Shown one piece after another: positions 7,835-39,360 of a DNA stretch of 64,000 bases; position 1 is the first letter of the stretch, and every line of letters begins with the position of its first letter. The DNA lies in NCBI GenBank assembly GCA_964651115.1, contig CAZYXJ010000001.1, positions 380,243 to 444,242 of the forward strand, read 5' to 3'. The stretch comes from an uncultured Candidatus Saccharibacteria bacterium. Lineage in GTDB: Bacteria > Patescibacteriota > Minisyncoccia > Phycocordibacterales > JACOZG01. The notes under the pieces are model-generated. The model did not search any database. It saw nothing but the letters and a program-made list of their open reading frames with translations, and was not told the origin of the DNA. Position numbers and translations under genes: made by a program.

Positions 7835-8899
7835 TTAAAACGGATTCTTCGCGCCGCGAATTTCGAAATGGAGGTGAGTGCCGGTCGAGCGGCCGGTATT
7901 ACCCATATAACCAATAACCTGGCCCTGCGTGACTCGCGCCCCCATCGCCACCGCGGTTGATTGGAGGTGAGCGTACAAAGTCTGAGTCCCATTGGAGTGG
8001 GAAATAACCACGTAATTACCATAGCCACCATTCCAACCACCCTCACGACTAATAATTACCTGCCCCGCGGCCGAAGCGAGAATTGGAGTCCCCGCTTTAG
8101 AAGCGAGGTCCACACCGTTATAACCGTGTAGGCCTTGAGTTTTTACTCCGCCCGCCAATGGCCGCAAATAATAGCCCGCGTAACTTGGTCCGGTACTGCC
8201 CTTAACCGGTGACTTGGCACCCGGCTTAGTCGTCGTCACTGGCGCCACCTCGCCATTAGGCACAATCACCACCTGACCAACCTTAACTTCGTCGCTTTCT
8301 AAGCCGTTAAATTGGGCGATTTCCGTCGCGTCACCCTTATATTTTTTAGCGATGCTGGCCAAAGTTTCTCCGCGCGCCACCGTATGACGGACACCAGAAA
8401 CTGGCAAAATAATCAAAATCTGACCTTCCTTAAGTGGCGTCTTGGCCGACATATCGTTAGCCCAAGCAATCGTGTTGACCGAGACGCCATACATCTCGGC
8501 GATTTGCGAAATAGAATCGCCAGCCCGCACCACATAGACACTAATCTCGTCGGTGGTGGGGGAATCATCAAGATCCGCCAAAGTACCTTCTGGGCCAGAT
8601 TCGGCCAAGAGAGCTGAGCCCGAAACAATAGTGTTGTCGCCACCACCCAAACCTCGTCCCGAACCCAAATTAACGCCCAAACTTGGCTCTAAACCAATCT
8701 TTTGGGAATTAACCGCGGCCAGATTAGACCCCGCTTCCACTCGAGCGGAAGAGATGACGTCAAACCAAGAAAAGAAACCGGCCTCAACTGGTCGGGGGGC
8801 AACCCCGCCGGCCAAGATCACCGCGGCTAAAATGGCAACAAAAACTGGCCCGAAACGTCGTGCCCTTGAGAAATCGCTATTAAATTGAGGTCGATCCAA
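7835..8899 (-). CDS. LysM-domain M23 family metallopeptidase (cell-wall endopeptidase)
   Basis: N-terminal TM; two LysM repeats (YVVRAGDSISQIAEMYGVS; HTVARGETLASIAKKYKGD); M23 motifs GVDLASKAGTPILASAAGQV and HLHFEIR. Confidence 0.85.
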   Translation of the reverse strand: MDRPQFNSDFSRARRFGPVFVAILAAVILAGGVAPRPVEAGFFSWFDVISSARVEAGSNLAAVNSQKIGLEPSLGVNLGSGRGLGGGDNTIVSGSALLAESGPEGTLADLDDSPTTDEISVYVVRAGDSISQIAEMYGVSVNTIAWANDMSAKTPLKEGQILIILPVSGVRHTVARGETLASIAKKYKGDATEIAQFNGLESDEVKVGQVVIVPNGEVAPVTTTKPGAKSPVKGSTGPSYAGYYLRPLAGGVKTQGLHGYNGVDLASKAGTPILASAAGQVIISREGGWNGGYGNYVVISHSNGTQTLYAHLQSTAVAMGARVTQGQVIGYMGNTGRSTGTHLHFEIRGAKNPF

Positions 8900-9045
8900 A
8901 ATAAGCCTTAAAGTAAGCCCCGCTATTGATGTTCCGGTCGTAAAATGGCTCTACATAGCCATTTTAATCAATCATTCATCCAAGCTACGGAGGCATTATA
9001 GCGTCCTCTCCGCCAGCAGGCAAGCTATGTTACACTAAAGCGCAC

Positions 9046-10971
9046 ATGGATCCTTTAGCTGGCCTTAATCCTTCGCAAACTACTGCCGCCGCGCACCAAA
9101 ACGGCCCACTGCTAGTGGTTGCCGGTGCGGGAGCCGGAAAAACGAAAACGGTCGCTCATCGCATCTGGAACCTAATCCACCACGGCGTGCCCCCCGAGGC
9201 GATTTTGGCCATCACCTTTACCAACAAAGCGGCCAGCGAAATGCGCGAACGAGTCCACCGCTTGGTCACAGCCGCGACCGGAGAAAATCGCCAGCCCTTC
9301 GTCTCGACCTTCCACGCGCTGGGAGTATTTATCATCCGAGAGAATGCCGCGCTTTTGGGATTAAGCAAATTTTTCTCAATCATCGATAAGGACGAAGCTC
9401 TGTCGGCCATTAAAAGTATTTTGAAGGAGCGCGGCCATGATCCAAAAACCGTCGAACCTAAAAAAGTTTTGAGCGCCATCTCACGCGCCAAAGGAGCGGG
9501 GATTACTCAAAGTAATTTTTCCGAGCGACACGTCGAAAGCTATTTTGGCGAAATTGTCTCGAGTGTTTGGCGCGCTTACGACTCACGACTCAAGGAGCAG
9601 GGCGCGCTCGACTTTGATGACCTGCTCCAAAAAACCGTCGAGCTCTGGAAAAATCATCCGGCCGTTTTGGAGCGCTACCAAAATCGCTGGCGCTATCTGC
9701 ACATCGACGAATATCAAGACACCAACAGCATCCAATATCAGATGGCGCGTCTTTTGGCCACGCGTCATCGCAACATCTGCGTCGTCGGCGACATTGATCA
9801 ATCAATTTATTCTTGGCGCGGCGCTGACTACAAAAATATTATGCGCTTCGAAGAAGATTACCCCGATGCCACCGTCGTCACCTTGGAACAAAATTATCGT
9901 TCGACCAAAACTATTCTGGCGGCGGCTAACGCGGTCATTAAAAAAAATCGCTCCCGTCGCGAAAAAAATCTTTTCACCGATAACGAAGACGGCGAATTGA
10001 TCAAATTGATTGTGGCTTTTGATGGCAACGACGAGGCCGCCAGGATCGCGAACGAAGCGAACACTCTCATCCGCGGCGGAACCAAAGCCAGCGACATCGC
10101 CGTGCTCTATCGAGCCAACTTCTTATCGCGCGCGCTGGAAGAAGCTTTTTTGCGCGCTGGCGTCCACTACCATGTTTTGGGCACCCGCTTTTTTGAACGG
10201 GCCGAAGTCAAAGATGTTTTAGCTTTCCTCAAAGCCGCGCTTAATCCGCAAGACATTGAGAGCACTAAGCGAATCATTAATGTGCCGGCCCGCGGCATCG
10301 GCAAAGTAACGCTGGCCAAATTATTTGCTCACGGGCCAGACTCCCTCGCCAAAGAAGTGCGGAAAAAAGTTAACGACTTCTACGAAACTATGGCCGACAT
10401 CAAGCGCGTCGCCGAACAAGAAAAACCATCAGTCACCATTAAATACATTGTTGAACGAAGCGGACTGGCCAACGCTCTGAAGGCCGGCGGTGATGACGAT
10501 CTCGAGCGTCTAGAAAACGTCCGCGAACTCGCCACCCTCGCGACTAAGTATGACGATCTCGGACCAGAGGAGGGGATTTGGAAACTTCTCACTGAGGCGG
10601 CGCTAATGTCGGATCAGGACGAATTAACTGAGGATCAAAAGGGTGTCCACTTGATGACCGTCCACGCCGCCAAGGGTCTAGAATTTGATTACGTTTTTGT
10701 AGCCGGATTAGAGCAAGACTTATTCCCTAGCGGACGATCGAAAAACGAAGATGCCGACCAGCGTGACGACGAGGAGGAGCGACGACTATTTTACGTGGCG
10801 GTGACGCGAGCCAAAAAACGACTCTACTTAACTTACGCGCAGATGCGCACGATCTATGGCCAGCGAATGATGACTTTGCCCTCAGAATTTATCGGCGACA
10901 TCGCGCCCGAATTACTGGAGGCCGAAGACGCCGAAGATCCATTTAAAAATTCTTATTTTATTGATTTTTAA
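9046..10971 (+). CDS. pcrA: UvrD/PcrA-family ATP-dependent DNA helicase
   Basis: Walker A AGAGAGKTKT; helicase motifs YLHIDEYQDTN, VVGDIDQSIY, QNYRS and the C-terminal VHAAKGLEFDYVFVAGLE motif. Confidence 0.85.
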   Translation: MDPLAGLNPSQTTAAAHQNGPLLVVAGAGAGKTKTVAHRIWNLIHHGVPPEAILAITFTNKAASEMRERVHRLVTAATGENRQPFVSTFHALGVFIIRENAALLGLSKFFSIIDKDEALSAIKSILKERGHDPKTVEPKKVLSAISRAKGAGITQSNFSERHVESYFGEIVSSVWRAYDSRLKEQGALDFDDLLQKTVELWKNHPAVLERYQNRWRYLHIDEYQDTNSIQYQMARLLATRHRNICVVGDIDQSIYSWRGADYKNIMRFEEDYPDATVVTLEQNYRSTKTILAAANAVIKKNRSRREKNLFTDNEDGELIKLIVAFDGNDEAARIANEANTLIRGGTKASDIAVLYRANFLSRALEEAFLRAGVHYHVLGTRFFERAEVKDVLAFLKAALNPQDIESTKRIINVPARGIGKVTLAKLFAHGPDSLAKEVRKKVNDFYETMADIKRVAEQEKPSVTIKYIVERSGLANALKAGGDDDLERLENVRELATLATKYDDLGPEEGIWKLLTEAALMSDQDELTEDQKGVHLMTVHAAKGLEFDYVFVAGLEQDLFPSGRSKNEDADQRDDEEERRLFYVAVTRAKKRLYLTYAQMRTIYGQRMMTLPSEFIGDIAPELLEAEDAEDPFKNSYFIDF

Positions 10972-10985
10972 TTGCTCGGATATAT

Positions 10986-11013
10986 TTGACTTAAAAATCA
11001 CCCGGCGTAAGAT
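10986..11013 (+). promoter_or_regulatory. predicted sigma70 promoter (TTGACT-N16-TAAGAT) for the 11041 gene
   Basis: -35/-10 hexamers at correct spacing, followed by AAAGGAGG Shine-Dalgarno and ATG. Confidence 0.45.
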
Positions 11014-11040
11014 GATGCTCAGACAAGAAAGGAGGCCGTT

Positions 11041-11472
11041 ATGGCCCAGATCATCGTTCGCCAACACTTTGGCAAGCAATCTCTAACTCCCCCTGTCGCC
11101 GCACTGGCATACGGAGCCATATCCAGGAGCATGGATGGATCGAGGGGTTATTGGTACCAAATCAAAAAACTGGTCATCGAACTTTCTTTTTTCCGCCCCA
11201 GCCTGGACGGACGAAAATCCATCCGCGTACCGGAAGGAGTCCTAGCGGTTAGTCTAACGATCAGCCTCCAGCACTCAGGCGTACGAGTGACCTCGCAGCG
11301 ATATTTAAATGGCCCGAACAACGTCACCGAACGCGACATCCAAGACGCCATCTCGTTCGCGTGGGAGATGTCCCTCAAGCAAGAACAAAAGTGTGCTAAT
11401 AGGAATAAAAAGGCCCAAGAAGAGATCCGGCAAACCATCTCCCATCTACAAGATCAAACCTGGTGCCCATGA
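11041..11472 (+). CDS. hypothetical protein (143 aa)
   Basis: Strong Shine-Dalgarno AAAGGAGG, own promoter and own terminator; no recognisable domain. Confidence 0.5.
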   Translation: MAQIIVRQHFGKQSLTPPVAALAYGAISRSMDGSRGYWYQIKKLVIELSFFRPSLDGRKSIRVPEGVLAVSLTISLQHSGVRVTSQRYLNGPNNVTERDIQDAISFAWEMSLKQEQKCANRNKKAQEEIRQTISHLQDQTWCP

Positions 11473-11478
11473 TCGCTC

Positions 11479-11518
11479 GCCCCAACTCTGGGGCTTTTTC
11501 TTTTTTCCAAAATTGACA
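11479..11518 (+). repeat. terminator/UP-element/-35 module copy 1 (GCCCCA-loop-TGGGGC hairpin, CTTTTTCTTTTTTCCAAAATTGACA)
   Basis: Hairpin and T-run immediately followed by AAAATTGACA. The same ~35-nt core recurs at 12061-12130, 14313-14380, 14682-14745 and 39268-39360. Confidence 0.6.
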
Positions 11519-11594
11519 AATTTTAAATATTAAGTAGTTTTAATGACGGAATCCGCGTTAAGTCAGAGACCACAAGCACACAAGAAGAATAACA

Positions 11595-12035
11595 GTGGAA
11601 CTGGCAAGATTGGTTGTCTATACTCTTTGGGGAAAAAATCCTCTAGCGGCTTACGAGCTCGTTAAGGGGGCGCACCAAATTCTGGGTGCCATCCCTGGCA
11701 CCAAAGTAGAAACCTTGGGGGTAGAGAATTCTGACCGGGCCGTAGCCGGGGCCGCCGGGAAAATCATCAAGATTACCCGTTGGCCAAGCAAGGCCGAGTT
11801 ACAGGTCTACGAGAATCATCCCAACCTCCGGCAGTGGTGCAAATATGTCTTACGAGGTTGGATGCTAAAAGGGAGTACCGCATCCGATCCCGCCACAGAA
11901 TTCATCGATTTCATTCTCTCGGCCAACAAAGCTGACCATCGAGAATGGGCCCGAGACCCGAATTACGAAGACTCCAAAGTGATCTGGGGCGGCGAGGAAG
12001 TTTGGCCTTGCCAAGTAATTCCTCCGCAACACTGA
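11595..12035 (+). CDS. Dabb-like (stress-responsive dimeric alpha+beta barrel) domain protein
   Basis: GTG start. The segment ITRWPSKAELQVYENHPNLRQWCKYVLRGWML resembles the Dabb signature (..EALQAYLAHPAH.AFVE..); weak call from memory. Confidence 0.4.
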   Translation: MELARLVVYTLWGKNPLAAYELVKGAHQILGAIPGTKVETLGVENSDRAVAGAAGKIIKITRWPSKAELQVYENHPNLRQWCKYVLRGWMLKGSTASDPATEFIDFILSANKADHREWARDPNYEDSKVIWGGEEVWPCQVIPPQH

Positions 12036-12060
12036 TCGGCAACCGTTACACACCCACCAA

Positions 12061-12130
12061 CCCCGACCGTCAGCCGACGATCGGGGTCTTTCTTTTCCAA
12101 AATTGACACCGCGCTCGGGGGGAGTAGGAT
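12061..12130 (+). repeat. terminator + promoter module copy 2 (TTGACA-N16-TAGGAT)
   Basis: CCCCGAccg...CGATCGGGG hairpin and T-run, then AAAATTGACACCGCGCTCGGGGGGAGTAGGATAG. Near-identical to the 14341-14382 copy through the -10 element. Confidence 0.6.
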
Positions 12131-12163
12131 AGTCCAAACAGGTCATCGAGAAAGGAGGCCACG

Positions 12164-12670
12164 ATGAAGATAACCTTCATCCAGACCGGCGGAACCTTCG
12201 ATAAGGATTACCCCGTCGGCAAAGCATACGAGTTTGTGATCGGTGATTCGGCCGTGCCAACAGTACTCACCCCAGTAAATCCCGCGTTCGAGTTCGAGGT
12301 CGTGACACTGCTTAAAAAGGACAGTAGCGATATTCGTAAACCGGATCGGGATAAGATCGTCCAAGCGTGCCGAAGTTGCAAGAATGATCGAATTATTGTG
12401 ACCCACGGCACGGACACGATGATCAAAACAGCAAAAGCGATCCAGGGGATTGAAAACAAGAGGATTGTGCTGACCGGCAGCACCAAGCCGCAACGGTTCA
12501 AGGAGACCGACGCCGATTTTAATCTCGGTTTTGCAATTGCCGCTGTGCAATTGATCAAACCCGGCGTGTATGTGGCAATGAACGGCCAAGTACACCATTG
12601 GTCTCGCTGCCTCAAAAACATGGAAACCGGGCAATTTGTAAAACATATCCCGGATCCACCATTCAAATAG
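12164..12670 (+). CDS. L-asparaginase N-terminal-domain-like protein (single domain, 168 aa)
   Basis: MKITFIQTGGTFDK (asparaginase TGGTIAG-type motif) and VTHGTDTM (hGTDTM motif); no C-terminal asparaginase domain. Shine-Dalgarno AAAGGAGG. Confidence 0.55.
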   Translation: MKITFIQTGGTFDKDYPVGKAYEFVIGDSAVPTVLTPVNPAFEFEVVTLLKKDSSDIRKPDRDKIVQACRSCKNDRIIVTHGTDTMIKTAKAIQGIENKRIVLTGSTKPQRFKETDADFNLGFAIAAVQLIKPGVYVAMNGQVHHWSRCLKNMETGQFVKHIPDPPFK

Positions 12671-12696
12671 AATGAACCAATCATCTGAAGCGCCGC

Positions 12697-12751
12697 GGCC
12701 ACGACTTGTCGTGGCCTTTTTCATTGACGCCAAGTTTTAGTGGAGTAGGAT
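12697..12751 (+). repeat. terminator (GGCCACGAC-ttg-TCGTGGCC + T-run) fused to promoter TTGACG-N16-TAGGAT
   Basis: Perfect 9-bp hairpin then TTTTTCATTGACGCCAAGTTTTAGTGGAGTAGGAT; the -10 context GAGTAGGAT is shared with module copy 2. Confidence 0.55.
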
Positions 12752-12768
12752 TTGATCATAAATATTTT

Positions 12769-13209
12769 ATGAGCGACGAGATCAATCGACCAAAAGTGGG
12801 AGTAGGGGTGATGATTATTAAAGATGGGAAAGTTTTGATGGCCAAACGCAAAGGATCGCACGGTGCAGGAGAATACGGCTTCCCCGGTGGCCACTTAGAA
12901 AATTTAGAGTCGTTTGAAGATTGTGCCGTCAGGGAAACGCGCGAGGAGTGTGGTATTGAAATAAAGAATATTAAATTTCTTTACGTCACCAACATTACCA
13001 AGTACGCCCCTAAACATTATGTTCACATTGGCGTGACGGCTGAATGGGCGAGCGGCGAACCAAAAACTTTGGAATCAGAAAAGGCCGAAGGGTGGCAATG
13101 GCACGATTTAAATAATTTACCCGAGGGCCCAACTTTCGAATTCTGCAAATTAGCTTTTGATGCCTACAAAACCGGCAAAGTTTATTACCCACTAATGAAA
13201 GCTGACTAA
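12769..13209 (+). CDS. Nudix hydrolase (MutT family)
   Basis: Nudix box GGHLENLESFEDCAVRETREECGIE (GX5EX7REUXEEXGU). Start placed at the ATG downstream of the predicted promoter; the track ORF begins at 12706. Confidence 0.8.
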   Translation: MSDEINRPKVGVGVMIIKDGKVLMAKRKGSHGAGEYGFPGGHLENLESFEDCAVRETREECGIEIKNIKFLYVTNITKYAPKHYVHIGVTAEWASGEPKTLESEKAEGWQWHDLNNLPEGPTFEFCKLAFDAYKTGKVYYPLMKAD

Positions 13210-13308
13210 AATACCGTTTGACTTTAACTAATTTTTGTGTTAGTTACAAAACAGAGCTCTTCGATAAGAGCCTAGAATAAAACACCTCTTTCAAGAAAGG
13301 AACGGTCT

Positions 13309-13803
13309 GTGGAACCTGCAAAATTCGTAAAAACACGCAAGTTCAAGATGCTGGTTGGAGTAGGAGGAGGAGTCTTCGTGCTCTCCTTCATCGTCTTTCT
13401 CGTTTGGTACGGCTTCTGGGTCAACTTTGTCGAGAACTACCAATACGGCTTCGTCTACGACAAGTTCAGCGGGGAAATCACCCCCCTGGATCACACCGGC
13501 TGGGTGGTGCGCAACCCCTGGCACTACAGCGTCCATTCGATCGACACCAGACCCTACCAGGTGTCGATCAGCGCCAACGAACGCGTTCTGAACGCGAAGC
13601 TTATCCGCTTCAACACCGAAGGCATCAAGACCTTTGTGGAGTGGCACGGACGGGCCGCCGGCGACGACACTTACAGCCTCAAAGAGATTCTGAAGTGCTA
13701 CGCCTTCGATCGTGATGAGGGCCGTGATTGCCCCTTCCTCACCGTCATCAGCGTGTTGGCGCCGAATCAGGCTGCCGGCCCCGTTGCCACTAAGGAGAAG
13801 TAA
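13309..13803 (+). CDS. hypothetical N-terminally anchored protein, paralog of the next gene
   Basis: N-terminal TM (MLVGVGGGVFVLSFIVFLVWYGFW). Shared motifs with the next ORF: ..SIDTRPYQVSI / ..RVDTRPMRVAV, NAKLIRF / SAKLIQF, EW..TVEGFRYW, CPFLTVI / YPFLRIL. GC-rich codon usage. Confidence 0.55.
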   Translation: MEPAKFVKTRKFKMLVGVGGGVFVLSFIVFLVWYGFWVNFVENYQYGFVYDKFSGEITPLDHTGWVVRNPWHYSVHSIDTRPYQVSISANERVLNAKLIRFNTEGIKTFVEWHGRAAGDDTYSLKEILKCYAFDRDEGRDCPFLTVISVLAPNQAAGPVATKEK

Positions 13804-14279
13804 TGCGGACTATCCAACCGGGGATCATCCTGAGTAAAGCCTGGCATAACCGCTGGGTGAAAAGGATCACGCCCGTACTCACTGGCGCCGTACTCTTCTA
13901 CCTGCTTTGCCTTAACCACAACGAGCCCACCCAAATCGGCATTGCTCGCAATCGAGTAAACGGTGCTATGTGGACTCAAAGAGGAGGCTGGCACCTGACG
14001 TCGCCCTGGGTTTCCGTGGCCCGCGTTGACACTCGTCCCATGAGAGTGGCGGTGAACTCGGCCGGACACGGTTACAGCGCCAAGCTGATCCAGTTTGCCC
14101 CTGAACACTGGCAAGAGTTCGTGACCGTAGAAGGCTTTCGCTATTGGTGGTGGGCCAACCGGTTCTCCTTCAACGGAGGGTACGACGAGGAGTACCGCGG
14201 AATGAGAGACATTCTCCGAGGCCATGCCTATGGAACCAAGTCATACCCGTTTCTGCGGATACTCAACGAGTACCAGTAG
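13803..14279 (+). CDS. hypothetical N-terminally anchored protein, paralog of the previous gene
   Basis: Start ATG overlaps the upstream stop (TAATG), implying translational coupling. N-terminal TM ITPVLTGAVLFYLLCL; paralogous motifs listed for the previous gene. Confidence 0.55.
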   Translation: MRTIQPGIILSKAWHNRWVKRITPVLTGAVLFYLLCLNHNEPTQIGIARNRVNGAMWTQRGGWHLTSPWVSVARVDTRPMRVAVNSAGHGYSAKLIQFAPEHWQEFVTVEGFRYWWWANRFSFNGGYDEEYRGMRDILRGHAYGTKSYPFLRILNEYQ

Positions 14280-14312
14280 AAACCACTCACCAACGACAAG
14301 TTCTCTTTCGCC

Positions 14313-14380
14313 CTGACGCACCAGCGCCGGGGCTTTTTCTTTTTTCAAAAATTGACACCGCGCTCGGGCGAGAGTAGGGT
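14313..14380 (+). repeat. terminator + promoter module copy 3 (TTGACA-N17-TAGGGT)
   Basis: GGGGCTTTTTCTTTTTTCAAAAATTGACACCGCGCTCGGGCGAGAGTAGGGTAG, then AGGAAGGA Shine-Dalgarno and ATG at 14415. Confidence 0.6.
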
Positions 14381-14414
14381 AGTTTTGGATCTATTTAACT
14401 TAGGAAGGACAAGA

Positions 14415-14642
14415 ATGGACCGAAAAACGATCACTAAGTTGCACAACGCCGCCAAGATAATTGAAGTGGACGGCGACGAAGGAGTCCAAGCGGCAACCAG
14501 AGTGGCAGGAGAAGAGGTGGCCATAGCTCTCCTCATCGCTCACTTGCGGCGAGCCAGCGGTTCGATGGAGACTTATCCGCCCAACCCGAACATCGAGCTG
14601 CAGGTGAACCGTCTGCTTGAGGGCAAGGGCTTGATTCCTTAA
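14415..14642 (+). CDS. hypothetical small protein (75 aa)
   Basis: ATG 7 nt after a GGAAGGA Shine-Dalgarno, downstream of module copy 3; the track ORF 14352..14642 is trimmed to this start. Confidence 0.45.
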   Translation: MDRKTITKLHNAAKIIEVDGDEGVQAATRVAGEEVAIALLIAHLRRASGSMETYPPNPNIELQVNRLLEGKGLIP

Positions 14643-14681
14643 CCGACCCGCGTCACCTCCAAAACAAAAAGTTTGCCCTTA

Positions 14682-14745
14682 GCTCCGCCCCGCGGAGCTT
14701 TTTTCTTTTTCAAAAATTGACACCAAGAAGAATCCGCATATTATT
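14682..14745 (+). repeat. terminator (GCTCCGC-ccc-GCGGAGC + T-run) + promoter module copy 4
   Basis: Perfect 7-bp hairpin, then TTTTTTCTTTTTCAAAAATTGACACC, with a -10-like ATTATT 17 nt downstream. Confidence 0.55.
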
Positions 14746-14769
14746 GGGATAATCTCAAGTTACCTCCAC

Positions 14770-15297
14770 ATGTTACAGCCAACAGAAATTCTAGCAGAAA
14801 TTAAAAGCCGGCCACCGCTTCAAAGAAAAAGCGCGGAGGAAAGCTATCGAGGAATAAAAGTTAATTGGAAACTTACGTTTAAGGACGCTCACCGAAGAAA
14901 TACCAACTTATTAATTCACGCCTGGCCTGAAAATAGTTTGTACCCAGATGTAGATTTCGAGGTAAATAAAGACGCCTACCCACATTTTAACATTTTACAT
15001 GACGGGGAGCTATTTTGGGTAAAGGGAAAAATAAGTGAATTAACTATGTATAAAATTCAATTAATAGACTGCGAGGTCAAATTTAGCGACGAATCGGAAT
15101 CCCAAAATGTTGAACAACCCTCTACAGGGAGCACTTTCGTAAATTCACAGATTCATTATGGAAATGGAGACAACGTTATTGGTAAAAAAACCATGGCCGT
15201 CGAAAGAAGTTTCTGGTCTAGTCTAGTAGGTCAGGTAATTGTAGGACTATCAGTTACTGCTATTGTCGCTATTTTTACTTATATTTTAAATAAGTGA
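14770..15297 (+). CDS. hypothetical C-terminally membrane-anchored protein, AT-rich (foreign-looking)
   Basis: C-terminal TM LVGQVIVGLSVTAIVAIFTYIL; by eye GC is roughly 38-40% versus about 50-55% in neighbours; no Shine-Dalgarno. Confidence 0.5.
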   Translation: MLQPTEILAEIKSRPPLQRKSAEESYRGIKVNWKLTFKDAHRRNTNLLIHAWPENSLYPDVDFEVNKDAYPHFNILHDGELFWVKGKISELTMYKIQLIDCEVKFSDESESQNVEQPSTGSTFVNSQIHYGNGDNVIGKKTMAVERSFWSSLVGQVIVGLSVTAIVAIFTYILNK

Positions 15298-16085
15298 TTA
15301 CTCGTCCTAAAAAATCACTCGGGCAAAATTGGCTCCGAAGCGAAGCGGCGAGAGCGGCGATTATTGAGGCGGCCGAGCTTGGCACTACTTCGCCCTCTGG
15401 GCTTCGAAGTACGACGACTAACGTCGTCGAGATTGGCCCCGGCGAAGGTTTTTTAACCGAAGCTCTACTGGCCACCGGCGCCACCGTCACCGCCATTGAG
15501 AAGGACGACCGCCTCATTGGCCTACTTTCCACCAAATTTTCCGCTCCACTCACGACCGGTCAGCTCAAGTTAATCCATGGCGACGCCCTCGATCAACCGC
15601 CACCAAGCGCGCCTTACAAAATCGTGGCTAATATACCTTATTATTTGACCGGGGAGATCTTGCGCCACTTCTTAACCCACTCCCATCAACCAACTCAGAT
15701 GGTCTTGATGCTCCAAAAAGAGGTGGCCGACCGGATTATTGCCCGGGATGGCAAAGAATCCTTACTCTCAATCTCCGTCAAAGCTTATGGCGAGCCAATT
15801 TATGTAAAAACTGTCCCGCGGGGCGCCTTTTCGCCCGTGCCCAACGTCGATTCGGCCATTCTTAACATTAAAAATATCTCTCGGGCTCGTCTAAAGAGGG
15901 AAGAGGAGTCTCGTTTTTGGGAAATTCTCCATTTAGGCTTCGCTCATAAACGTAAGTTAGTCTTAAAAAATCTGGGTTGTTCGACAGCCATCGCCGAGCT
16001 CTGTACAATTAGCCCCAAAGCCCGAGCAGAAAATCTAACCCTTAAACAATGGCTATGCCTAACGAAGCAACCGAACCTCCAGTAA
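15294..16085 (+). CDS. rsmA: 16S rRNA (adenine1518-N6/adenine1519-N6)-dimethyltransferase
   Basis: KsgA motifs SLGQNWL, VVEIGPGEGFLT, IVANIPYYLT. Confidence 0.85.
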   Translation: MITRPKKSLGQNWLRSEAARAAIIEAAELGTTSPSGLRSTTTNVVEIGPGEGFLTEALLATGATVTAIEKDDRLIGLLSTKFSAPLTTGQLKLIHGDALDQPPPSAPYKIVANIPYYLTGEILRHFLTHSHQPTQMVLMLQKEVADRIIARDGKESLLSISVKAYGEPIYVKTVPRGAFSPVPNVDSAILNIKNISRARLKREEESRFWEILHLGFAHKRKLVLKNLGCSTAIAELCTISPKARAENLTLKQWLCLTKQPNLQ

Positions 16086-16108
16086 AATTACCCGGCTCAG
16101 GCTGGTTT

Positions 16109-16639
16109 ATGGCCATGATTGGCCTGGCTCTGGTCGTTTTGGGACTAGCCCACTCCTTGACCTTATCGAACAACACCGCATCCGAAGCCCCGGGTCTAAC
16201 CAGCACCGCCAACCCATCCGCAATTGACGAAAATTCCACTTTACCGCTCAGCAAGGCCACTACTTCGAAAATTAAGATCAACAACTTAACCCTCGACGTC
16301 TTTTTGGCCGCTGATCCAGTGGCTCAAGCCCAAGGCCTGTCGGGGCGGCCAGCCCTCGGCCCACTCGAAGGGATGCTCTTTATCTTTAATCGCGACACCG
16401 AACCAAACTTCTGGATGAAAGATATGAACTTCGCCATCGACATCATCTGGATTGATCAAGCCGGCCGAGTTATTGCCATCGAACCCAATCTCACCCCCGA
16501 TACTTATCCCAACTATTTTGCTCCACCCGAACCAATCCGCTACGTCTTGGAAGTAAACGCGGGCTTTGCCGATACTCATCAGATTACACTGGGTAATTTT
16601 ATCCACTTTCTTGAGCCAGAAGTCGTGAACACTCAGTGA
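16109..16639 (+). CDS. DUF192 (COG1430) family protein with N-terminal signal/TM
   Basis: FIFNRDTEPNFWMKDMNFAIDIIWIDQAGRVIAIEP matches the DUF192 core; start taken at the internal ATG (MAMIGLALVVLG). Confidence 0.6.
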   Translation: MAMIGLALVVLGLAHSLTLSNNTASEAPGLTSTANPSAIDENSTLPLSKATTSKIKINNLTLDVFLAADPVAQAQGLSGRPALGPLEGMLFIFNRDTEPNFWMKDMNFAIDIIWIDQAGRVIAIEPNLTPDTYPNYFAPPEPIRYVLEVNAGFADTHQITLGNFIHFLEPEVVNTQ

Positions 16640-16662
16640 AAAACAAGTTATAATAAACTTGG

Positions 16663-17520
16663 GTGAAGAGAAAAATATTTATTTTCGCGCTTGTCGCGAT
16701 TCTTGTTGTAGGTGGAGGAGTGATTTTCTTGTGGGTACTAGGAAACAAAACTCTCCAAGACCAAGAGCTCGCGGCTCAAGGTTTTAAAAAAATTGATCAG
16801 CCAGACTCAGACGGGGATAGTCTGGCTGATTGGGAAGAAGAATTGTGGGAAACCGATCCACAAAAACCCGACACCGATGGCGACGGCGCCAGCGACGGAG
16901 AAGAAATTAAAGCCCGTCGCGACCCGCGACGGGCTGGACCAGGTGACGAGATACAGACCGCAAAAGATAATTTAAATATTTTAATTTATCAGGCGCTTAA
17001 ATCTAAGGATAATGGATTAATTATCCCCGAGACACCACTAGCATCCCCATCAGTAAAACAAGTAAAAGTTACAACAACAAACGAACGAACTGCCGAGGAA
17101 GCAATTCAATACGCGAGGAAGTTCGTGGCCGCCACTGCCCCCTACTTGCAATACTCCGGACCCAACCCCGAAAAATCGCTGCTAGAAAAAATCGACAACG
17201 AGAAATCCTCAGCCACAGAAAACCTGACCAATTACGGTTACATGCTCGAGGGGGTGACCCAATCACTTGAAGACATAAGCACCCCAGAAGAAGTTAGTTC
17301 TCATCACATTAAACTAATAACTCAAATAAAAAAAATGGCTGTTTTAGTTCAAAATATGCTTGAAGCCGAAAAACAACCAATTATCGCCCTGCAAGCTGGC
17401 CAACAATTTCCGATTGAGCGAGCATACGTTAGCCAAGCAATTTTAGATATAAACCAATATCTGATTAGATATGGCGTTTCGTTAACACCGGAAATGCTTA
17501 GTGGGATTCTTCGATTTTAA
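16663..17520 (+). CDS. membrane-anchored protein with thrombospondin-type-3-like Ca-binding Asp repeats
   Basis: N-terminal TM; DSDGDSLADWEEE and DTDGDGASDGEE (DxDxDG) motifs; first gene of the T4SS-like cluster. Confidence 0.45.
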   Translation: MKRKIFIFALVAILVVGGGVIFLWVLGNKTLQDQELAAQGFKKIDQPDSDGDSLADWEEELWETDPQKPDTDGDGASDGEEIKARRDPRRAGPGDEIQTAKDNLNILIYQALKSKDNGLIIPETPLASPSVKQVKVTTTNERTAEEAIQYARKFVAATAPYLQYSGPNPEKSLLEKIDNEKSSATENLTNYGYMLEGVTQSLEDISTPEEVSSHHIKLITQIKKMAVLVQNMLEAEKQPIIALQAGQQFPIERAYVSQAILDINQYLIRYGVSLTPEMLSGILRF

Positions 17521-17523
17521 AAC

Positions 17524-20500
17524 ATGAAACTCGGATCAAATATAAAAAAAGCTAGCTCCGGAATGATATTTATTTGGATAATTTCCTGTTTGATTTTTGT
17601 GCCCATAATGGCCGCGGCTCAAAATAAGACCAGTGTTGACCAGCGACGTCAGCAAGATAGCCAAATTTGCCAAGCGGAAGCAGAGAATAACAGAAACTTT
17701 AACTCACTCCCTGGGGGACGTAAGCTGGCTGATTCTTTGGCCCTAGGACTAGCCGAAGGTTTTAATACGGTTTTGAAAAATACCCTAGAGACCAAGGTTC
17801 CCGCCATCATGTCGAGGCAGATCAGCCAAAAATTACCTGCTCTCATAAACGGAAACCTCCAGCGCCAACTTGCCCCCGCCATCAACAATCAAATTAGAAC
17901 AATGAGAAGCCGGGGGCTTTCTGACATTCAAATAAAACAAGAGTTGCAATCAATCATCGCTCAGGCAATTGAGGCCATCGTATCTGAAACAATCAACGCC
18001 CACGCGGGAACACTAACTCAGCAAGGGATCCAAACTGCTTTGCCACAAGAGCTAGCACGCCAAATGGGTGATCAAGTGCCAAGTATTTTGGAAGCTAGTG
18101 GATTTAATCGCCAGACTCAAGAGATGGTCGATCAACTAGTAAATCCAATTAACCAGCTTTTGCCCCTCGTTATCCAATTAATGACTCAGGTTCAAAATGT
18201 TGGCGACGTTCAACAAATTATTCAACAAATTTTCGCCCAAGCGGTACAAAAAATTATTACAGATGCAATAAGTAGCAAGAACCCAGAAATCGGCCCCCTA
18301 CTTGGATCAGAAATCACTATCTCCGACGCCGATCGTAAATTAATCGCGGAAAAAATTTCAACCGGAGTCGCCAGCACCACTCAGCAAACCCTTTATAAAT
18401 CAAGGAATTTAGTTAACCTGTCCAATGAAGTATCCCGACGCTATGCCTCACAACTGACCCCCTTATTAATCTCTCAACTCACCCCCCAAATATCTCAAGC
18501 CTTTAGAAATGGCCCCACCGGATCCTCATTAAACAACTCAATTAACAACATTCTAACGGGACCAGGGTTCGACTTGTCGCGCGGCATGTCTGGGGATTTT
18601 CTAATGCCGATAATGAACTCAATCGAAAAACCCCTGGCCGACGTTGTTCAAACCCAAGTAGCGTCGTGGACAAACAGCCTCCAAAGTCTTGAGCAAACAA
18701 ATCCTGCTTTGTTCGAAAGTTTAACTTTCGAACAATCCGATCTTTTGGGTGAATCGGCAACACTAGATGCGGAATTTGCTGATCGAGGAATGGGCGGTAG
18801 TTATGGTGGCGTAGAAAATGGCAACCAAGCGGCGGCCGAGGCTACAGTAACCGACCCGGAATTTGCTGATCGAGGAGTAGGTAATGTGGCCGCGGTAAGC
18901 GACGAAGCTGCTCAGGCCGTTAAAGGCAACGGATCAGAAATAACTTCAAACGCCCTAAGCGGAATGGGTTCAAAAATAAGTGATGCTTTTAAGGGTAGTC
19001 TCGCTAACGGTTTGGCGGGGGGTCTAGCTGGTCTGGTGGATAATGTGCCAGTGGTTGGTGGGCTACTCTCTGGTGTTGTTCGCCAAGTCACCCTACAAGC
19101 CATGCAACAAGTATTGGGGGTCGGTGTGGGTGCTGGAGTAGGCGGAGGAGCCACTGGTGGCGGTGGCGGTGGAATCCAGGGCGAAGCTAAAACCGGTTTA
19201 AAACTTGGCACGACTGTAGGCATACTACCCGTTAGTAGTCATCAATTTGCTGGCATGAGCCTGCTTCTCGACGCCATCTTTAACTTCTTGCACTTAGGAC
19301 TTACGGCCTCCAATGTAAACACCGGCGGTATTTTGGGTAACACTTCAACCAGCAATCAAAACGAAAAACAACAAATAACCATCGGTCAAGAAACTCAAGC
19401 TCTAGTAACCCAAATGTGCACTCTAGAAAAGCAGCTCAAAGGATCTCTTTACAACATGGAGGACGTTTTAACTAAACACAACCCAAACGCCAACAAATCA
19501 TCGCTCTTAAAACTCGTTGGAATGCTCAAAGGAGGGACAACCTACTTCTCCCAGTATTACGATGATGGTAGCAAAGGAGGAGTGGCCGCGGGCGACGGGA
19601 CCACTACGCGCAGTGGTCAATCGGGAGTGGCCCAGTTAGATAAAAACATCAAACAGGCCGGGCAAGATGAGAGCAACCTAGTCTTAACCACTGCCCAAAC
19701 CAGCCAAAATCCCCTGACCCAGGAGGCGATAGAACTATACCGCAGCAGTCGCGCGGATGAAAACGTCTTTGCTAGTTGGATCGCGCCCGAAGATTGTTCC
19801 AAGCTAAATAACCCAGGGTCACTTTCTTCTCAAGAAGCGTCTGACCTGGCGGTCGAATGTTCTAAACCAGCCAATAACAAGTTCGGACTGTTTACTCAAG
19901 TGAGACAGGGCGCCCTATCGGCGGAGGCGCGAGGCCAAGAAGATGCCCAAACCAAGTTTGTCGCCTATAGCGGAGTCAACGAAAAGAGATACTGCTCCGG
20001 AGGCTGGACCACCGACCCACTTGAAGCCGATCTGAGCGATTTAACACTACCTGGCGAAAACGGTGACATCCTTGGACAAACGCCAATTGGCGCACCACGG
20101 CAATATTGTAAAGAATGGACAACTCTAACCCCCGGATCAATCAACTATCTGTACATGTTTGAATTAATCGCTTCGATAATAAGAAAAATCGGCTCGGCTG
20201 ATTCCGTGGGAGAAGATGTGGCCAATAACTATGCGGTAGTACCAGAACGAATAGTGCAAAACCTGTCCACCAAACCAGAGGAGCAATTGTTTGACCCAAA
20301 TGATGATCCCTGCCCGGGAACAGATCCCTGCCCGGGAACTGGTTGGAATAAAAAACAGGTTTCTGAAGGATCAGCCCTGGAAGAGGCCTTCTCTCAAGGA
20401 CTCGATGAAGGTCTAGCAAACACCGTAGATAATCTTTCTAATGTTTTTGACACTATCAGCTACGACGCAATTAATTCTCCCACTAGTGGCACTGTTTTCC

Positions 20501-20880
20501 CCGCCAACCCCCTTGACTTCTCTCTACCCGCCATCGACTTTAACCAACTATTTCAAAATCAGTTGGCGGTGCAGCCGGCTTTGGCCGCCCCCGGCATCAG
20601 CATTCAACAAGCCACTACCGACAGCACCCCCGGCATTAAACAATCGAGAGTCTCGTGGAAGACCACCGGCGCCGTAACTTGTTTTGCCTCCACGGATTGG
20701 CTAAGCGGCACTTGGCCCGGCGACATTAGCACCACCACCGCTGGCAGTCTACTGGAGACGGTGGGGGAAATAACCCTCAACTACCCAGCCACCACCACAA
20801 CAGACCTGACTTACGGCTTAAACTGCTATAACTCCCAAGGCGTGAGCAGTCAGACGGAAGTTAAAGTAACCAATGAATAA
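17524..20880 (+). CDS. large (1118 aa) secreted/surface low-complexity protein of the T4SS-like cluster
   Basis: N-terminal TM; Q-, S- and G-rich regions (GGGATGGGGGG); internal tandem repeats (EFADRG x2, DPCPGT x2); no enzymatic motif recognised. Confidence 0.5.
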   Translation: MKLGSNIKKASSGMIFIWIISCLIFVPIMAAAQNKTSVDQRRQQDSQICQAEAENNRNFNSLPGGRKLADSLALGLAEGFNTVLKNTLETKVPAIMSRQISQKLPALINGNLQRQLAPAINNQIRTMRSRGLSDIQIKQELQSIIAQAIEAIVSETINAHAGTLTQQGIQTALPQELARQMGDQVPSILEASGFNRQTQEMVDQLVNPINQLLPLVIQLMTQVQNVGDVQQIIQQIFAQAVQKIITDAISSKNPEIGPLLGSEITISDADRKLIAEKISTGVASTTQQTLYKSRNLVNLSNEVSRRYASQLTPLLISQLTPQISQAFRNGPTGSSLNNSINNILTGPGFDLSRGMSGDFLMPIMNSIEKPLADVVQTQVASWTNSLQSLEQTNPALFESLTFEQSDLLGESATLDAEFADRGMGGSYGGVENGNQAAAEATVTDPEFADRGVGNVAAVSDEAAQAVKGNGSEITSNALSGMGSKISDAFKGSLANGLAGGLAGLVDNVPVVGGLLSGVVRQVTLQAMQQVLGVGVGAGVGGGATGGGGGGIQGEAKTGLKLGTTVGILPVSSHQFAGMSLLLDAIFNFLHLGLTASNVNTGGILGNTSTSNQNEKQQITIGQETQALVTQMCTLEKQLKGSLYNMEDVLTKHNPNANKSSLLKLVGMLKGGTTYFSQYYDDGSKGGVAAGDGTTTRSGQSGVAQLDKNIKQAGQDESNLVLTTAQTSQNPLTQEAIELYRSSRADENVFASWIAPEDCSKLNNPGSLSSQEASDLAVECSKPANNKFGLFTQVRQGALSAEARGQEDAQTKFVAYSGVNEKRYCSGGWTTDPLEADLSDLTLPGENGDILGQTPIGAPRQYCKEWTTLTPGSINYLYMFELIASIIRKIGSADSVGEDVANNYAVVPERIVQNLSTKPEEQLFDPNDDPCPGTDPCPGTGWNKKQVSEGSALEEAFSQGLDEGLANTVDNLSNVFDTISYDAINSPTSGTVFPANPLDFSLPAIDFNQLFQNQLAVQPALAAPGISIQQATTDSTPGIKQSRVSWKTTGAVTCFASTDWLSGTWPGDISTTTAGSLLETVGEITLNYPATTTTDLTYGLNCYNSQGVSSQTEVKVTNE

Positions 20881-38488: not shown

Positions 38489-38609
38489 AGCGGCATTTTA
38501 GCATATTTGGTGAGGCCTAACCCTTGACAAGATTTTAATTAAATGCTAGTTTCCGCAGTGAAGAACTCGGGTGAGTTCGAGATCTTTTAAAGAAGGAAGG
38601 AGGCGCGTA

Positions 38610-39233
38610 ATGCGCCAGGCGATGTGGAAGATGATCGTGGCGGCGGTGGCGGTGATGGCGGCGTCGGTGTCGGCGAATTCGATCGTGGGGGTGAGCTACC
38701 CTCGCGATCAGTTCGAAGTGGGGGTCTCCCACGGCTACGGCCATGAGGAGCTGGCCGTAGCGTCGGTCAATCTGTCGACTAACTCCCGGCAGATCGAGGA
38801 GGCCCGAGTCCAGGCCCGGCCCATTTTCTGGGACGACCAGCCCGGACTCATGATCGTGATGACCTTCTACGGCCGTCACGATCAAGACCCGACAAAGGCC
38901 AAGAAGTGGTTAAGCTCGGTCCAGGCATTTCCTGGGGTCGAGCTCGGCTCCTCGATTGGAGGATGGGATGATCAGGGGAAGGTCGTCGATCAGGCGTTCG
39001 CCTGGGCGGAGATCGAAGGCCTGAGTTGGTCTAACACCTGGATCAATTATGAGACCTTCCCTTACGGGAAGGGGAGCCTCAACCAGCCGCGGGGTTTCCA
39101 GTGGACCTTCGGGTTCACTGGTTACTTTGATGATCCGGTTAAGGGGCGAGCGACGCTCGCGGCCTTGCCGGAGCCATCTGCACTCGTCCTTCTGGGCATC
39201 GGCGCCCTTCCGTTTTTGCTGCGCCGGCGCTAG
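38610..39233 (+). CDS. secreted protein with C-terminal PEP-CTERM sorting signal
   Basis: GGAGG Shine-Dalgarno; signal peptide MIVAAVAVMAASVSA; C-terminus LPEPSALVLLGIGALPFLLRRR-stop (PEP + TM + Arg cluster). GC-rich. Confidence 0.6.
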   Translation: MRQAMWKMIVAAVAVMAASVSANSIVGVSYPRDQFEVGVSHGYGHEELAVASVNLSTNSRQIEEARVQARPIFWDDQPGLMIVMTFYGRHDQDPTKAKKWLSSVQAFPGVELGSSIGGWDDQGKVVDQAFAWAEIEGLSWSNTWINYETFPYGKGSLNQPRGFQWTFGFTGYFDDPVKGRATLAALPEPSALVLLGIGALPFLLRRR

Positions 39234-39267
39234 GATTGAGTGAGTTGAGTCGTGCGCTGGCGACTCC

Positions 39268-39360
39268 CCCGGGCGAGCACCTTACGGTGCCGCTCGGGGT
39301 TTTTCTTTTTTAAAAATCAGACTTATACACAACCGGACAGAGCCGTATATGCTAGAGTAG
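39268..39360 (+). repeat. terminator + degenerate promoter module copy 5
   Basis: CCCCGGGCGAGC...GCCGCTCGGGG hairpin, then TTTTTCTTTTTTAAAAATCAGAC, related to the 11-15 kb modules; followed by palindrome GAGTTCGgtgtTCGAACTC. Confidence 0.5.

Follow-up and report, generated by a model that had tools for sequence, protein, structure and literature searches.

An array of eight small genes between pcrA and rsmA in an uncultured Patescibacteria genome: a probable accessory islet at a recurrently used operon boundary

The DNA considered here is a 64,000-nucleotide (nt) stretch, hereafter the window, of contig CAZYXJ010000001.1 from a genome labelled as an uncultured Candidatus Saccharibacteria bacterium (assembly GCA_964651115.1), and the subject of this report is an array of eight small genes lying in it between the conserved genes pcrA and rsmA. 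The array is flanked on the left by the pcrA/uvrD helicase gene (9046..10971; Pfam UvrD-helicase 2.5e-83, UvrD_C 4.1e-75) and on the right by rsmA/ksgA (15294..16085; Pfam RrnaAD 1.3e-45), both conserved and both on the + strand. The interval of 4,322 nt between them holds eight open reading frames (ORFs), g1 to g8, all on the + strand as well: g1 (11041..11472, 143 amino acids (aa)), g2 (11595..12035, 146 aa), g3 (12164..12670, 168 aa), g4 (12769..13209, 146 aa, or 132 aa if the start is ATG 12811), g5 (13309..13803, at most 164 aa, with an uncertain start at GTG 13309 or 13378), g6 (13803..14279, 158 aa), g7 (14415..14642, 75 aa) and g8 (14770..15297, 175 aa).

From pcrA to rsmA, the same-strand gaps measure 69, 122, 128, 98, 99, -1, 135, 127 and -4 nt. 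Their median of 99 nt compares with 4 nt elsewhere in the window (40 gaps; Mann-Whitney p=0.017), in keeping with the remark of an earlier first-pass annotation of this DNA that the housekeeping genes are tightly packed in comparison with the array. Two junctions are exceptions to this loose spacing: the g5 stop and g6 start overlap in TAATG, and the g8 stop and the GTG of rsmA overlap in GTGA. The array is genuine and no binning or assembly artefact, because four Logan contigs from three sequencing runs (L094 from SRR14271375, L095 and L090 from SRR14271372, L003 from SRR14271365) tile positions 10581-15462, both junctions included, at 100% identity; a chimeric metagenome-assembled genome (MAG) is ruled out by the same four independent contigs.

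Relatives do not have the array, and in other lineages unrelated genes have come to occupy the same site. The nearest genome (L001), labelled as an uncultured Candidatus Saccharibacteria MAG and the only close genome among GTDB species representatives, has a PcrA 99% identical in amino acids and flanks 92-93% identical in nucleotides; its pcrA stop and rsmA ATG lie 5 nt apart, and the whole array is missing. Homology with this genome resumes at codon 5 of the window rsmA, the N-terminus reading MITRP in the window versus MQA in L001, and the insertion is codon-exact, beginning at the pcrA stop and ending at codon 5 of rsmA. In the next relatives (PcrA 62-64%), which keep the synteny of NYN, DksA-like, ComM, LysM-M23, PcrA, RsmA, DUF192 and large proteins, the slot holds either no gene (L006 and L007) or a single unrelated small gene (L008 and L009), furnished in both cases with a promoter and a terminator of its own. 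Profile-guided scanning of metagenome contigs added 80 further PcrA loci at 50-58% identity, and slot statistics were drawn from 74 related Patescibacteria loci holding both pcrA and rsmA. In 74/74, rsmA is found downstream of pcrA in the same orientation, and the median distance between them is 71 nt; the gap is at most 150 nt in 50 loci, 150-400 nt in seven, and 486-2099 nt in 17 (23%). The inserts of these 17 loci are unrelated to one another and to g1-g8 and never exceed 2.1 kb, so that the 4,322-nt insert of the window is the largest observed at the slot.

Genes found in the slot in other lineages include IS200/Y1_Tnp-like genes (five loci), PaaX/Cas2-like genes (two loci), a 513-aa membrane protein (three loci), a UbiA fusion (two loci), a Nudix gene with a low-molecular-weight phosphatase gene (LMWPc; one locus), an AbiEi/AbiEii module (one locus, L048) and small unknown proteins. 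The first-pass annotation had called the interval an accessory hotspot and had named conservation of the same eight genes in distant relatives as the finding that would speak against it. That check left the proposal standing: no homolog of g1-g8 was found in the 74 pcrA-rsmA loci, in the 80 metagenome pcrA loci or in the syntenic relatives, and across 89 loci (1.1 Mb) the only matches lay in two contigs, L004 and L005, that had been fetched as g5 homologs. As for the IS200/Y1_Tnp-like (HUH, RAYT-like) genes, they encode proteins of ~215-226 aa and sit exactly between pcrA and rsmA in all five Patescibacteria loci (L058 2630-3277, L056 6474-7154, L071 3310-3978, L023 4822-5502 and L055 11002-11670), which could mean that a subclade has inherited the gene vertically or that the slot has been targeted repeatedly.

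The boundary is not a unique hotspot. The divergent lysM/pcrA slot is comparably variable, holding at least 900 nt in 22/61 loci, and pcrA/rsmA is thus one recurrent slot among several permissive operon boundaries. Because the lysM/pcrA slot also varies and L001 carries extra genes beside its Xer-type gene, variation by insertion of small genes at operon boundaries is general in this clade. The extra segment of L001 (1741-2962, corresponding to window ~2014-2023) is ~1.2 kb long and contributes two small ORFs beside the Xer-type integrase gene, one of 67 aa with a transmembrane (TM) segment and one of 117 aa on the minus strand; both are absent from the window and form a second small-gene indel between the two ~92%-identical genomes. 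These slot findings match the published description of Patescibacteria genomic islands, in which most genes are unannotated and often unique and donors are mostly intra-phylum (PMC12455944).

Within the array, seven sigma70-like promoters, one per junction, were found by reading the sequence and by scanning; each combines TTGAC(A/T/G), a spacer of 16-17 nt and a -10 hexamer of the form TA...T/A, and the -35 box is an exact TTGACA in four of the seven. All lie on the + strand. The promoter-like site of g1 (10986..11013; TTGACT, 16 nt, TAAGAT; scan 9/12) is followed by a Shine-Dalgarno (SD) sequence, AAGGAGG, upstream of ATG 11041. That of g2 (11513..11540; TTGACA, 16 nt, TAGTTT) was read from the sequence, while the scan gave the promoters of g3 (12103-12130; TTGACA, 16 nt, TAGGAT; 10/12) and g4 (12724-12751; TTGACG, 16 nt, TAGGAT), the latter with a -10 region homologous to those of the g3 and g7 promoters (repeat family D3, 72%). 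Ahead of g5-g6 lies a site read from the sequence (13218..13246; TTGACT, 17 nt, TAGTTA, with an extended -10 TGT), and the homologous gene pairs of L004 and L005 have TTGAC(A/C) promoters in the same relative place. The g7 promoter (14352-14380) reads TTGACA, 17 nt, TAGGGT, and that of g8 (14717-14744), which reads TTGACA, 16 nt, TATTAT, is the best match of the region (scan 11/12); g8 itself has no SD sequence. Since the -10 variants TAGGAT, TAGGGT, TAGTTT and TAGTTA also appear in the promoters of native genes outside the array, such as those at 38524 (TAGTTT) and 40932, the predicted array promoters are of the ordinary type for this genome. Over window positions 8000-18000, generic scan counts are not above shuffled expectation, either for promoters (12 vs 8.7) or for terminators (17 vs 14.3).

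Folding predicts five canonical intrinsic terminators, located 3' of g1, g2, g3, g6 and g7, with free energies (dG) from -11.7 to about -20 kcal/mol, z-scores near -3 and a U-run after each. On the + strand, these are the g1 hairpin at 11479-11494 (dG -11.7, z -2.8); the g2 hairpin with UCUUUCUUUU at 12060-12087 (-19.8 kcal/mol for the 65-nt stretch 12036-12100, z -3.1); the g3 hairpin and U-run at 12692-12716 (-16.5 kcal/mol, z -2.9); the g5-g6 hairpin with UUUUUCUUUUUU at 14310-14333 (-16.1 kcal/mol, z -3.0); and the g7 hairpin with UUUUUUCUUUUU at 14681-14699 (z -3.3). The same folding of the junctions found no canonical terminator 3' of pcrA, g4, g5 or g8: the 69-nt region 10972-11040 after pcrA has no stable fold, and the hairpin downstream of g4 (13255-13272) is without a U-run. 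The pcrA transcript would probably read through into g1. Because the g5 stop and g6 start overlap, g5/g6 is predicted to be bicistronic, and because the g8 stop overlaps the rsmA GTG, the predicted g8 promoter should read into rsmA. With these two overlaps and only five terminators, the array would comprise about six transcription units, promoter activity being presumed from sequence. The first-pass annotation was right about the eight short genes; its description of each as a monocistronic cassette with its own promoter and its own terminator holds only in part, given seven promoters, five terminators and the overlaps at g5/g6 and g8/rsmA. In relatives, rsmA is preceded by a -10-like box, TGCTAnCAT / TGCTATGCT, placed 5-8 nt before the ATG (L006 ~8975-8990, L008 ~9530-9553, L009 ~9390-9412), which suggests an rsmA mRNA that is leaderless or has a very short leader; in the window, this near-ATG promoter is replaced by the g8 unit.

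Four junctions share a linker of 27-41 nt composed of the 3' half of a terminator stem, TTTTTCTTTTTTC, (C/A)AAAA and TTGACA(CC). Its copies, all on the + strand, are found at 11478..11518 (the family D1 reference copy, in which hairpin 11479-11494 is followed by UUUUUCUUUUUU, an A-tract and TTGACA), at 12093-12119 (families D2 and D3), at 14317-14368 (D1 88%, D8 96%) and at 14682-14722 (D1 68%, D2 67%), and g2, g3 and g7 each have copies on both sides. The promoters of g3 and g7 are identical at 26/27 positions, spacer included (TTGACACCGCGCTCGGG), and the g4 promoter has the same GAGTAGGAT -10 region. An exact AAAATTGACA occurs at four sites in the 64-kb window, 4/4 of them inside the array, and the linker is the longest non-tRNA repeat family of the window. 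Numbering the junctions J1 to J6, homology along the linker forms a mosaic: J1 and J5 have the terminator stem in common, J1, J2, J5 and J6 the T-run and -35 box, and J2, J5 and partly J3 the spacer and -10 box. Such a pattern suggests duplication or recombination between junctions, and the linker as a whole hints at recombination-driven accretion. Segments of it (an 18-nt junction, a 17-nt promoter core and an 18-nt terminator tail, with at most two mismatches) are absent outside the array in the 1.1 Mb of fetched loci, a few near-matches to the terminator tail only excepted, and searches of viral contigs and JGI metagenome contigs gave no exact match to the 21-nt promoter core AAAATTGACACCGCGCTCGGG. 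A looser relative lies at window 39283-39323 (61% to the 41-nt reference), behind an isolated gene, and because a lone gene outside the array has this terminator-tail relative behind it, the similarity among the linker copies may partly be a genome-wide style.

That lone gene (ATG 38611 to 39233, within 38524-39323) stands by itself with its own TTGACA promoter and an intrinsic terminator whose tail, GGGGTTTTTCTTTTTTAAAAAT, is similar to the array linker. Its GC content is 61% and its GC content at third codon positions (GC3) is 76% (z +3); it encodes a protein with a signal peptide and, at the C-terminus, a PEP-CTERM-like sequence, LPEPSALVLLGIGALPFLLRRR. A Pfam search with this protein returned no match.

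Composition differs from gene to gene along the array. Against the 58 other genes of the window (GC 51.6 +/- 4.1%, GC3 56.0 +/- 6.7%), g8 is the strongest outlier of the whole window, with a GC of 37.3% (z -3.5) and a GC3 of 32%. The GC3 of g5, g6 and g7 is high (76, 69 and 66%; z +3.0, +2.0 and +1.5), the GC of g4 is lower (44%, z -1.7), and g1-g3 are native-like in both GC and GC3. The mosaic composition noticed in the first reading is therefore real for g8 (AT-rich), g5-g7 (GC3-rich) and g4, and does not extend to g1-g3, which match the rest of the window. The compositional mosaic would fit several acquisitions from different donors better than one block.

At the two ends of the array, a direct repeat was found (family D6): the left copy, CTTAAAAATCACCCGG, lies in the spacer of the g1 promoter (10990..11005, + strand) and matches at 14/16 positions the right copy, CTAAAAAATCACTCGG, which falls within rsmA codons 5-10 (KKSLG; 15307..15322, + strand). 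The pair ranks 4 of 3181 windows by local alignment, and chance matches equally good exist elsewhere; it may be the trace of an insertion event, as a target duplication or as microhomology. An extended duplication of ~60 nt of the pcrA-rsmA junction at the array ends was considered and dropped, being indistinguishable from chance similarity of AT-rich sequence.

The array products have little in common. The first-pass annotation had already recognised an asparaginase N-domain protein, a Nudix hydrolase and two paralogous membrane-anchored proteins, all of which were borne out by the searches, and a Dabb-like protein, which stands at family and fold level only. The asparaginase is g3 (asparaginase N-domain, Pfam 3.6e-20), which matches the 185-aa asparaginase of PDB 8uoo with a phmmer E-value of 4.1e-30. 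Its motifs GGTFDKDY, HGTDT and CLKN align to GGTIDKDY, HGTDT and TRKN of RrA, and it conserves the residues aligned to RrA Thr16, Lys19, Tyr21, Thr87, Asp88 and Lys158; the roles of the RrA catalytic residues, including the family-specific Lys19, have been described (PMC10949315). By sequence, g3 is predicted to be an RrA-type short-chain L-asparaginase (Asn -> Asp + NH3) with its catalytic residues intact. Like other members of that family, it is about 170 aa long and corresponds to the N-terminal domain of class 1 asparaginases, and the idea of a truncated pseudo-enzyme was rejected on account of this membership in a described family; unlike them, it is a stand-alone promoter/terminator unit in a genome of the candidate phyla radiation (CPR). 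The Nudix hydrolase is g4 (Pfam NUDIX 4e-21), whose translation has an intact Nudix box GX5EX7REUXEEXGU (GHLENLESFEDCAVRETREECGI); its matches to the PADLOC candidate PDC-S07 (4.3e-16) and to PHROGs reflect generic Nudix similarity.

The g2 family is rare, with 34 homolog clusters among 1.84e9 representatives. By itself, g2 reaches an E-value of only 0.17 against Pfam Dabb (PF07876), and 21/32 family members match, the best at 1.1e-13. The AlphaFold 2 (AF2) model of g2 has a predicted local distance difference test score (pLDDT) of 95.9, and its top Foldseek matches are Dabb and ferredoxin-like dimers; a C-terminal extension of ~50 aa lies outside the Dabb part. Family searches and the model together confirm g2, at the level of family and fold only, as a predicted divergent Dabb or dimeric alpha+beta-barrel protein. 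Searches of PDB with phmmer found nothing for g1 or g2.

The paralogs g5 and g6 share 27% identity (BLASTP, E 2e-10). Of g5, 142 homologs were found, 45-76% identical within the part of the query that aligned (taken from the best BLASTP segment), and all the named matches are Patescibacteria. Its AF2 model (pLDDT 92.8) has an N-terminal TM helix (3-37) followed by a beta-rich domain, and ranks 1-30 of the Foldseek search are all SPFH proteins (HflK/C, prohibitin, erlin, stomatin, flotillin and QmcA), with probabilities of 0.89-1.0 (1.00 for the top 17), E-values down to 1e-4 and modest, query-normalised TM-scores of 0.31-0.48. The chain ends ~25 residues past the SPFH domain, and the C-terminal coiled coil is absent. 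No Pfam match, Band_7 included, was found for g5/g6 at E <= 0.1, and a PDB profile search with the g5 family gave nothing useful. On the strength of the model, g5/g6 would be a minimal SPFH-fold membrane protein pair of CPR bacteria. The pair resembles the SPFH scaffolds (stomatin, prohibitin, flotillin and HflK-HflC) in having an SPFH alpha/beta domain behind an N-terminal TM helix, and HflK/HflC and PHB1/PHB2 in being a heterologous pair of paralogs; it differs from the scaffolds in its length of ~160 aa without long cage-building C-terminal coiled coils, in giving no Pfam Band_7 match and in belonging to a family that comes, in this analysis, from Patescibacteria only. The SPFH coiled coil is thought necessary for cage formation, and the minimal pair is without it. 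The tandem arrangement is conserved in L004, L005, L091 and L092, in four other and mutually different neighbourhoods, and the pair thus appears to behave as a two-gene module. A conserved leader or riboswitch upstream of it was considered and dropped, the five upstream regions aligning only at the promoter. In L005 (7000-8932), the pair lies directly downstream of an NfeD1b_N/Peptidase_S49 gene, an arrangement that echoes the known operon partnership of NfeD and SPFH proteins.

The other three products gave little. g8 is an AT-rich ORFan with a C-terminal TM anchor that finds only itself among 5.8e9 clusters. g1, which has no TM segment, had no significant match in Pfam (E 0.05-0.07, below threshold, at best), NCBIfam, PADLOC, PHROGs, PDB or phages, and g7 had none in Pfam, NCBIfam, PADLOC, PHROGs or phages. 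No match to phages was found for g1, g7 or g8 by tblastn, nor to phages and plasmids for the whole array by blastn, and an Rfam search of 10800-15500 (E <= 1) gave a chance viral match only. The array products on record, among which the exact sequence of g4 is not found in the collection, are singletons at 90% identity, the exception being g5, for which a second form with another start codon exists. Exact look-ups of the 164-aa form of g5 and of the window PcrA found no record. The genes of the cargo are unrelated in function, with no shared pathway, recognised defence system or mobility gene. A toxin-antitoxin pair g7/g8 was rejected, a terminator lying between the two genes and neither matching a family, and a prophage remnant was rejected for want of any phage gene.

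Taken together, these results most probably describe a strain-specific accessory islet of an ultra-small Patescibacteria/CPR bacterium with a small genome, accreted at a permissive and recurrently used operon boundary and made of insulated, self-expressed units with unrelated cargo. In this clade pcrA usually lies next to rsmA, the boundary being one of several permissive slots that collect small foreign genes. The array would have been gained in this strain rather than lost elsewhere, and built in several steps from different donors. In each of its ~6 insulated units, the T-run of the preceding terminator would provide an A/T-rich, UP-like tract, followed by the TTGACA -35 box and a TAGnnT-type -10 box; five units would end in an intrinsic terminator, pcrA would read into g1, and the g8 promoter would also drive rsmA. 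The shared linker would then stem from duplication or recombination between junctions during accretion.

Known systems place the array among ordinary forms of genome plasticity. Like other genomic islets and plasticity regions, including the published Patescibacteria islands (PMC12455944), it is present in one strain and missing from a ~92%-identical relative, it occupies a core-gene boundary reused by unrelated cargo, its composition is mosaic and its genes are mostly unannotated or unique. Presence at this conserved boundary is variable (a 5-nt gap in L001, other inserts in 17/74 loci), and composition deviates for g8 (GC z -3.5) and g5 (GC3 z +3.0), not for g1-g3. The array is unlike such islets in its very small size (4.3 kb), in having no integrase, tRNA or other mobility gene, and in its own promoter for each unit, its shared junction linker and its codon-exact insertion. 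Between the flanking coding sequences there is no room for a tRNA gene (no tRNA scan was run). Pfam searches of the eight products and two flanking genes, the part of the 64-kb window scanned for recombinases, found none, and nothing integrase-like lies near the array except the Xer-type gene at 2026-2931, ~8 kb away and within conserved synteny (assigned by synteny with L006/L007, not by Pfam). With integron arrays, it shares same-strand small unrelated genes, short repeated junction elements with hairpins, and typical gene types (Nudix and small unknown proteins). It differs from them in being without intI, attI or Pc, in cassettes that have their own promoters, in GC-rich terminator stems with T-runs in place of attC, and in junction homology that lies in the T-run and -35 box rather than in R/L boxes. 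An integron was rejected, as it had been in the first-pass annotation, on the absence of intI and of attC-like hairpins (no attC covariance model was run) and on the cassettes' own promoters. The locus is a known kind of genome plasticity rather than a new system: an ordinary islet, if one whose modular layout is unusually tidy.

Several points weigh against reading the array as an accreted islet. All of its promoters and terminators are predicted ones. The searches turned up neither a mobility gene nor a clear target-site duplication, and the 14/16-nt flanking repeat is suggestive only. Gain over loss is a matter of parsimony from one close relative and distant ones, no intermediate (partial) array was seen among the loci compared, and the native composition of g1-g3 allows for old residents or a donor of similar composition. 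As regards the linker, its terminator tail TTTTTCTTTTTT and A-run recur at window 39296-39318, and the search for it in its own genome covered 64 kb only.

Among the alternatives, the one that fares best, while still unlikely, takes the linker itself as the substrate of recombination, promoter-carrying cassettes being added, lost and shuffled by homologous or microhomology recombination in what would amount to an integrase-independent functional analogue of an integron. The sharing of 27-41 nt at 67-96% identity by four junctions fits this well, as do the 26/27 identical bases that cross a promoter spacer unconstrained by sigma70 function, the rank of the linker as the longest non-tRNA repeat family of the window, its mosaic homology and the bracketing of g2, g3 and g7. 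Yet searches of viral contigs, JGI metagenomes and 1.1 Mb of related loci turned up no second or partial array and no isolated cassette with this linker, the inserts of other lineages do not use it, repeats of this length are short by the standards of RecA-type recombination, a lone gene outside the array also has a similar terminator tail, and simple local duplication of a promoter would give an identical picture. The more specific proposition of integrase-free capture and shuffling of promoter-gene-terminator units at a terminator-tail/UP/-35 linker is judged a shade more doubtful still; if true, linker-driven accretion would make the pcrA/rsmA boundary a plug-and-play accessory locus for streamlined CPR genomes.

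An ancestral block, in which the eight genes are old residents deleted in L001 and in the other lineages, appears highly improbable. Native GC and GC3 in g1-g3 and the reductive pressure on CPR genomes would suit it, but the junction is compact in 50/74 lineages, the closest genome and the 62-64% outgroups included, none of the loci has a homolog of g1-g8 near pcrA, and the composition of g8 and of g5-g7 is deviant. The 14/16 flanking direct repeat could in principle mediate deletion, but a repeat-repeat deletion would not recreate the L001 sequence TAATTTTATGCAAGC.

Least credible of all is a defence or stress island whose genes cooperate, for example Nudix with membrane effectors, as an anti-phage or stress system: the match of g4 to PDC-S07 (4.3e-16), the AbiEi/AbiEii module in the same slot of L048 and the frequent link of SPFH and Dabb proteins to stress are outweighed by a PADLOC match that stays at the level of a generic Nudix domain, by the terminators that separate the genes, by their lack of co-occurrence elsewhere, and by the four contexts of the SPFH pair, in only one of which a Nudix gene (47% identity) is nearby. 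In PADLOC-DB 2.0, g4 alone of the eight proteins matched, the other seven giving none, and PHROG, phage and plasmid searches returned nothing beyond Nudix, so that the stress, defence or host-interaction modules imagined in the first-pass annotation found no support.

Understood as an accreted islet, the locus offers a well-resolved case of gene gain in a streamlined, host-dependent bacterium, in which small, self-expressed units settle at an operon boundary and leave the neighbouring genes undisturbed, the last unit (g8) even taking over, by prediction, the expression of rsmA. The recurrence of the pcrA/rsmA slot across a broad clade of Patescibacteria makes it an anchor for the mining of accessory genes in metagenomes. 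Modelled folds can now be proposed for two unannotated families, a widespread minimal SPFH pair of CPR bacteria and a rare Dabb variant, and an RrA-type short asparaginase predicted in a CPR genome makes amino-acid or ammonia scavenging plausible. None of these findings overturns current understanding.

Further observations concern the surroundings of the array and its relatives. Within the window RsmA (15294-15460 vs L001 11932-12040), a 14-residue Ser/Thr-rich stretch, GTTSPSGLRSTTTN, stands in place of KARDK in L001, just ahead of the GPGEG motif that binds S-adenosylmethionine (SAM). Farther downstream, window 16941-23369 has no DNA-level alignment with L001 13542-19525, in genomes that are otherwise 86-93% identical; the segment encodes a 285-aa TSP3-repeat protein and proteins of 1118 and 836 aa, which are probably fast-evolving surface proteins. 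The best named matches of PcrA, besides two near-identical genomes, are Vogelbacteria, Yonathbacteria, Paceibacterota and Parcubacteria (54-64% identity), and the Saccharibacteria label may be imprecise. Finally, a 384-kb Patescibacteria contig (L004, 1469-13532) holds a larger same-strand array of small genes of similar look, with a run of RibD_C, DUF1801, SnoaL, HIT, AAA_18, Nudix, DUF1579, the SPFH pair, YgjP-like, Nudix and 2OG-Fe(II) oxygenase genes, many of which have a TATACT-type -10 box directly before the start codon.

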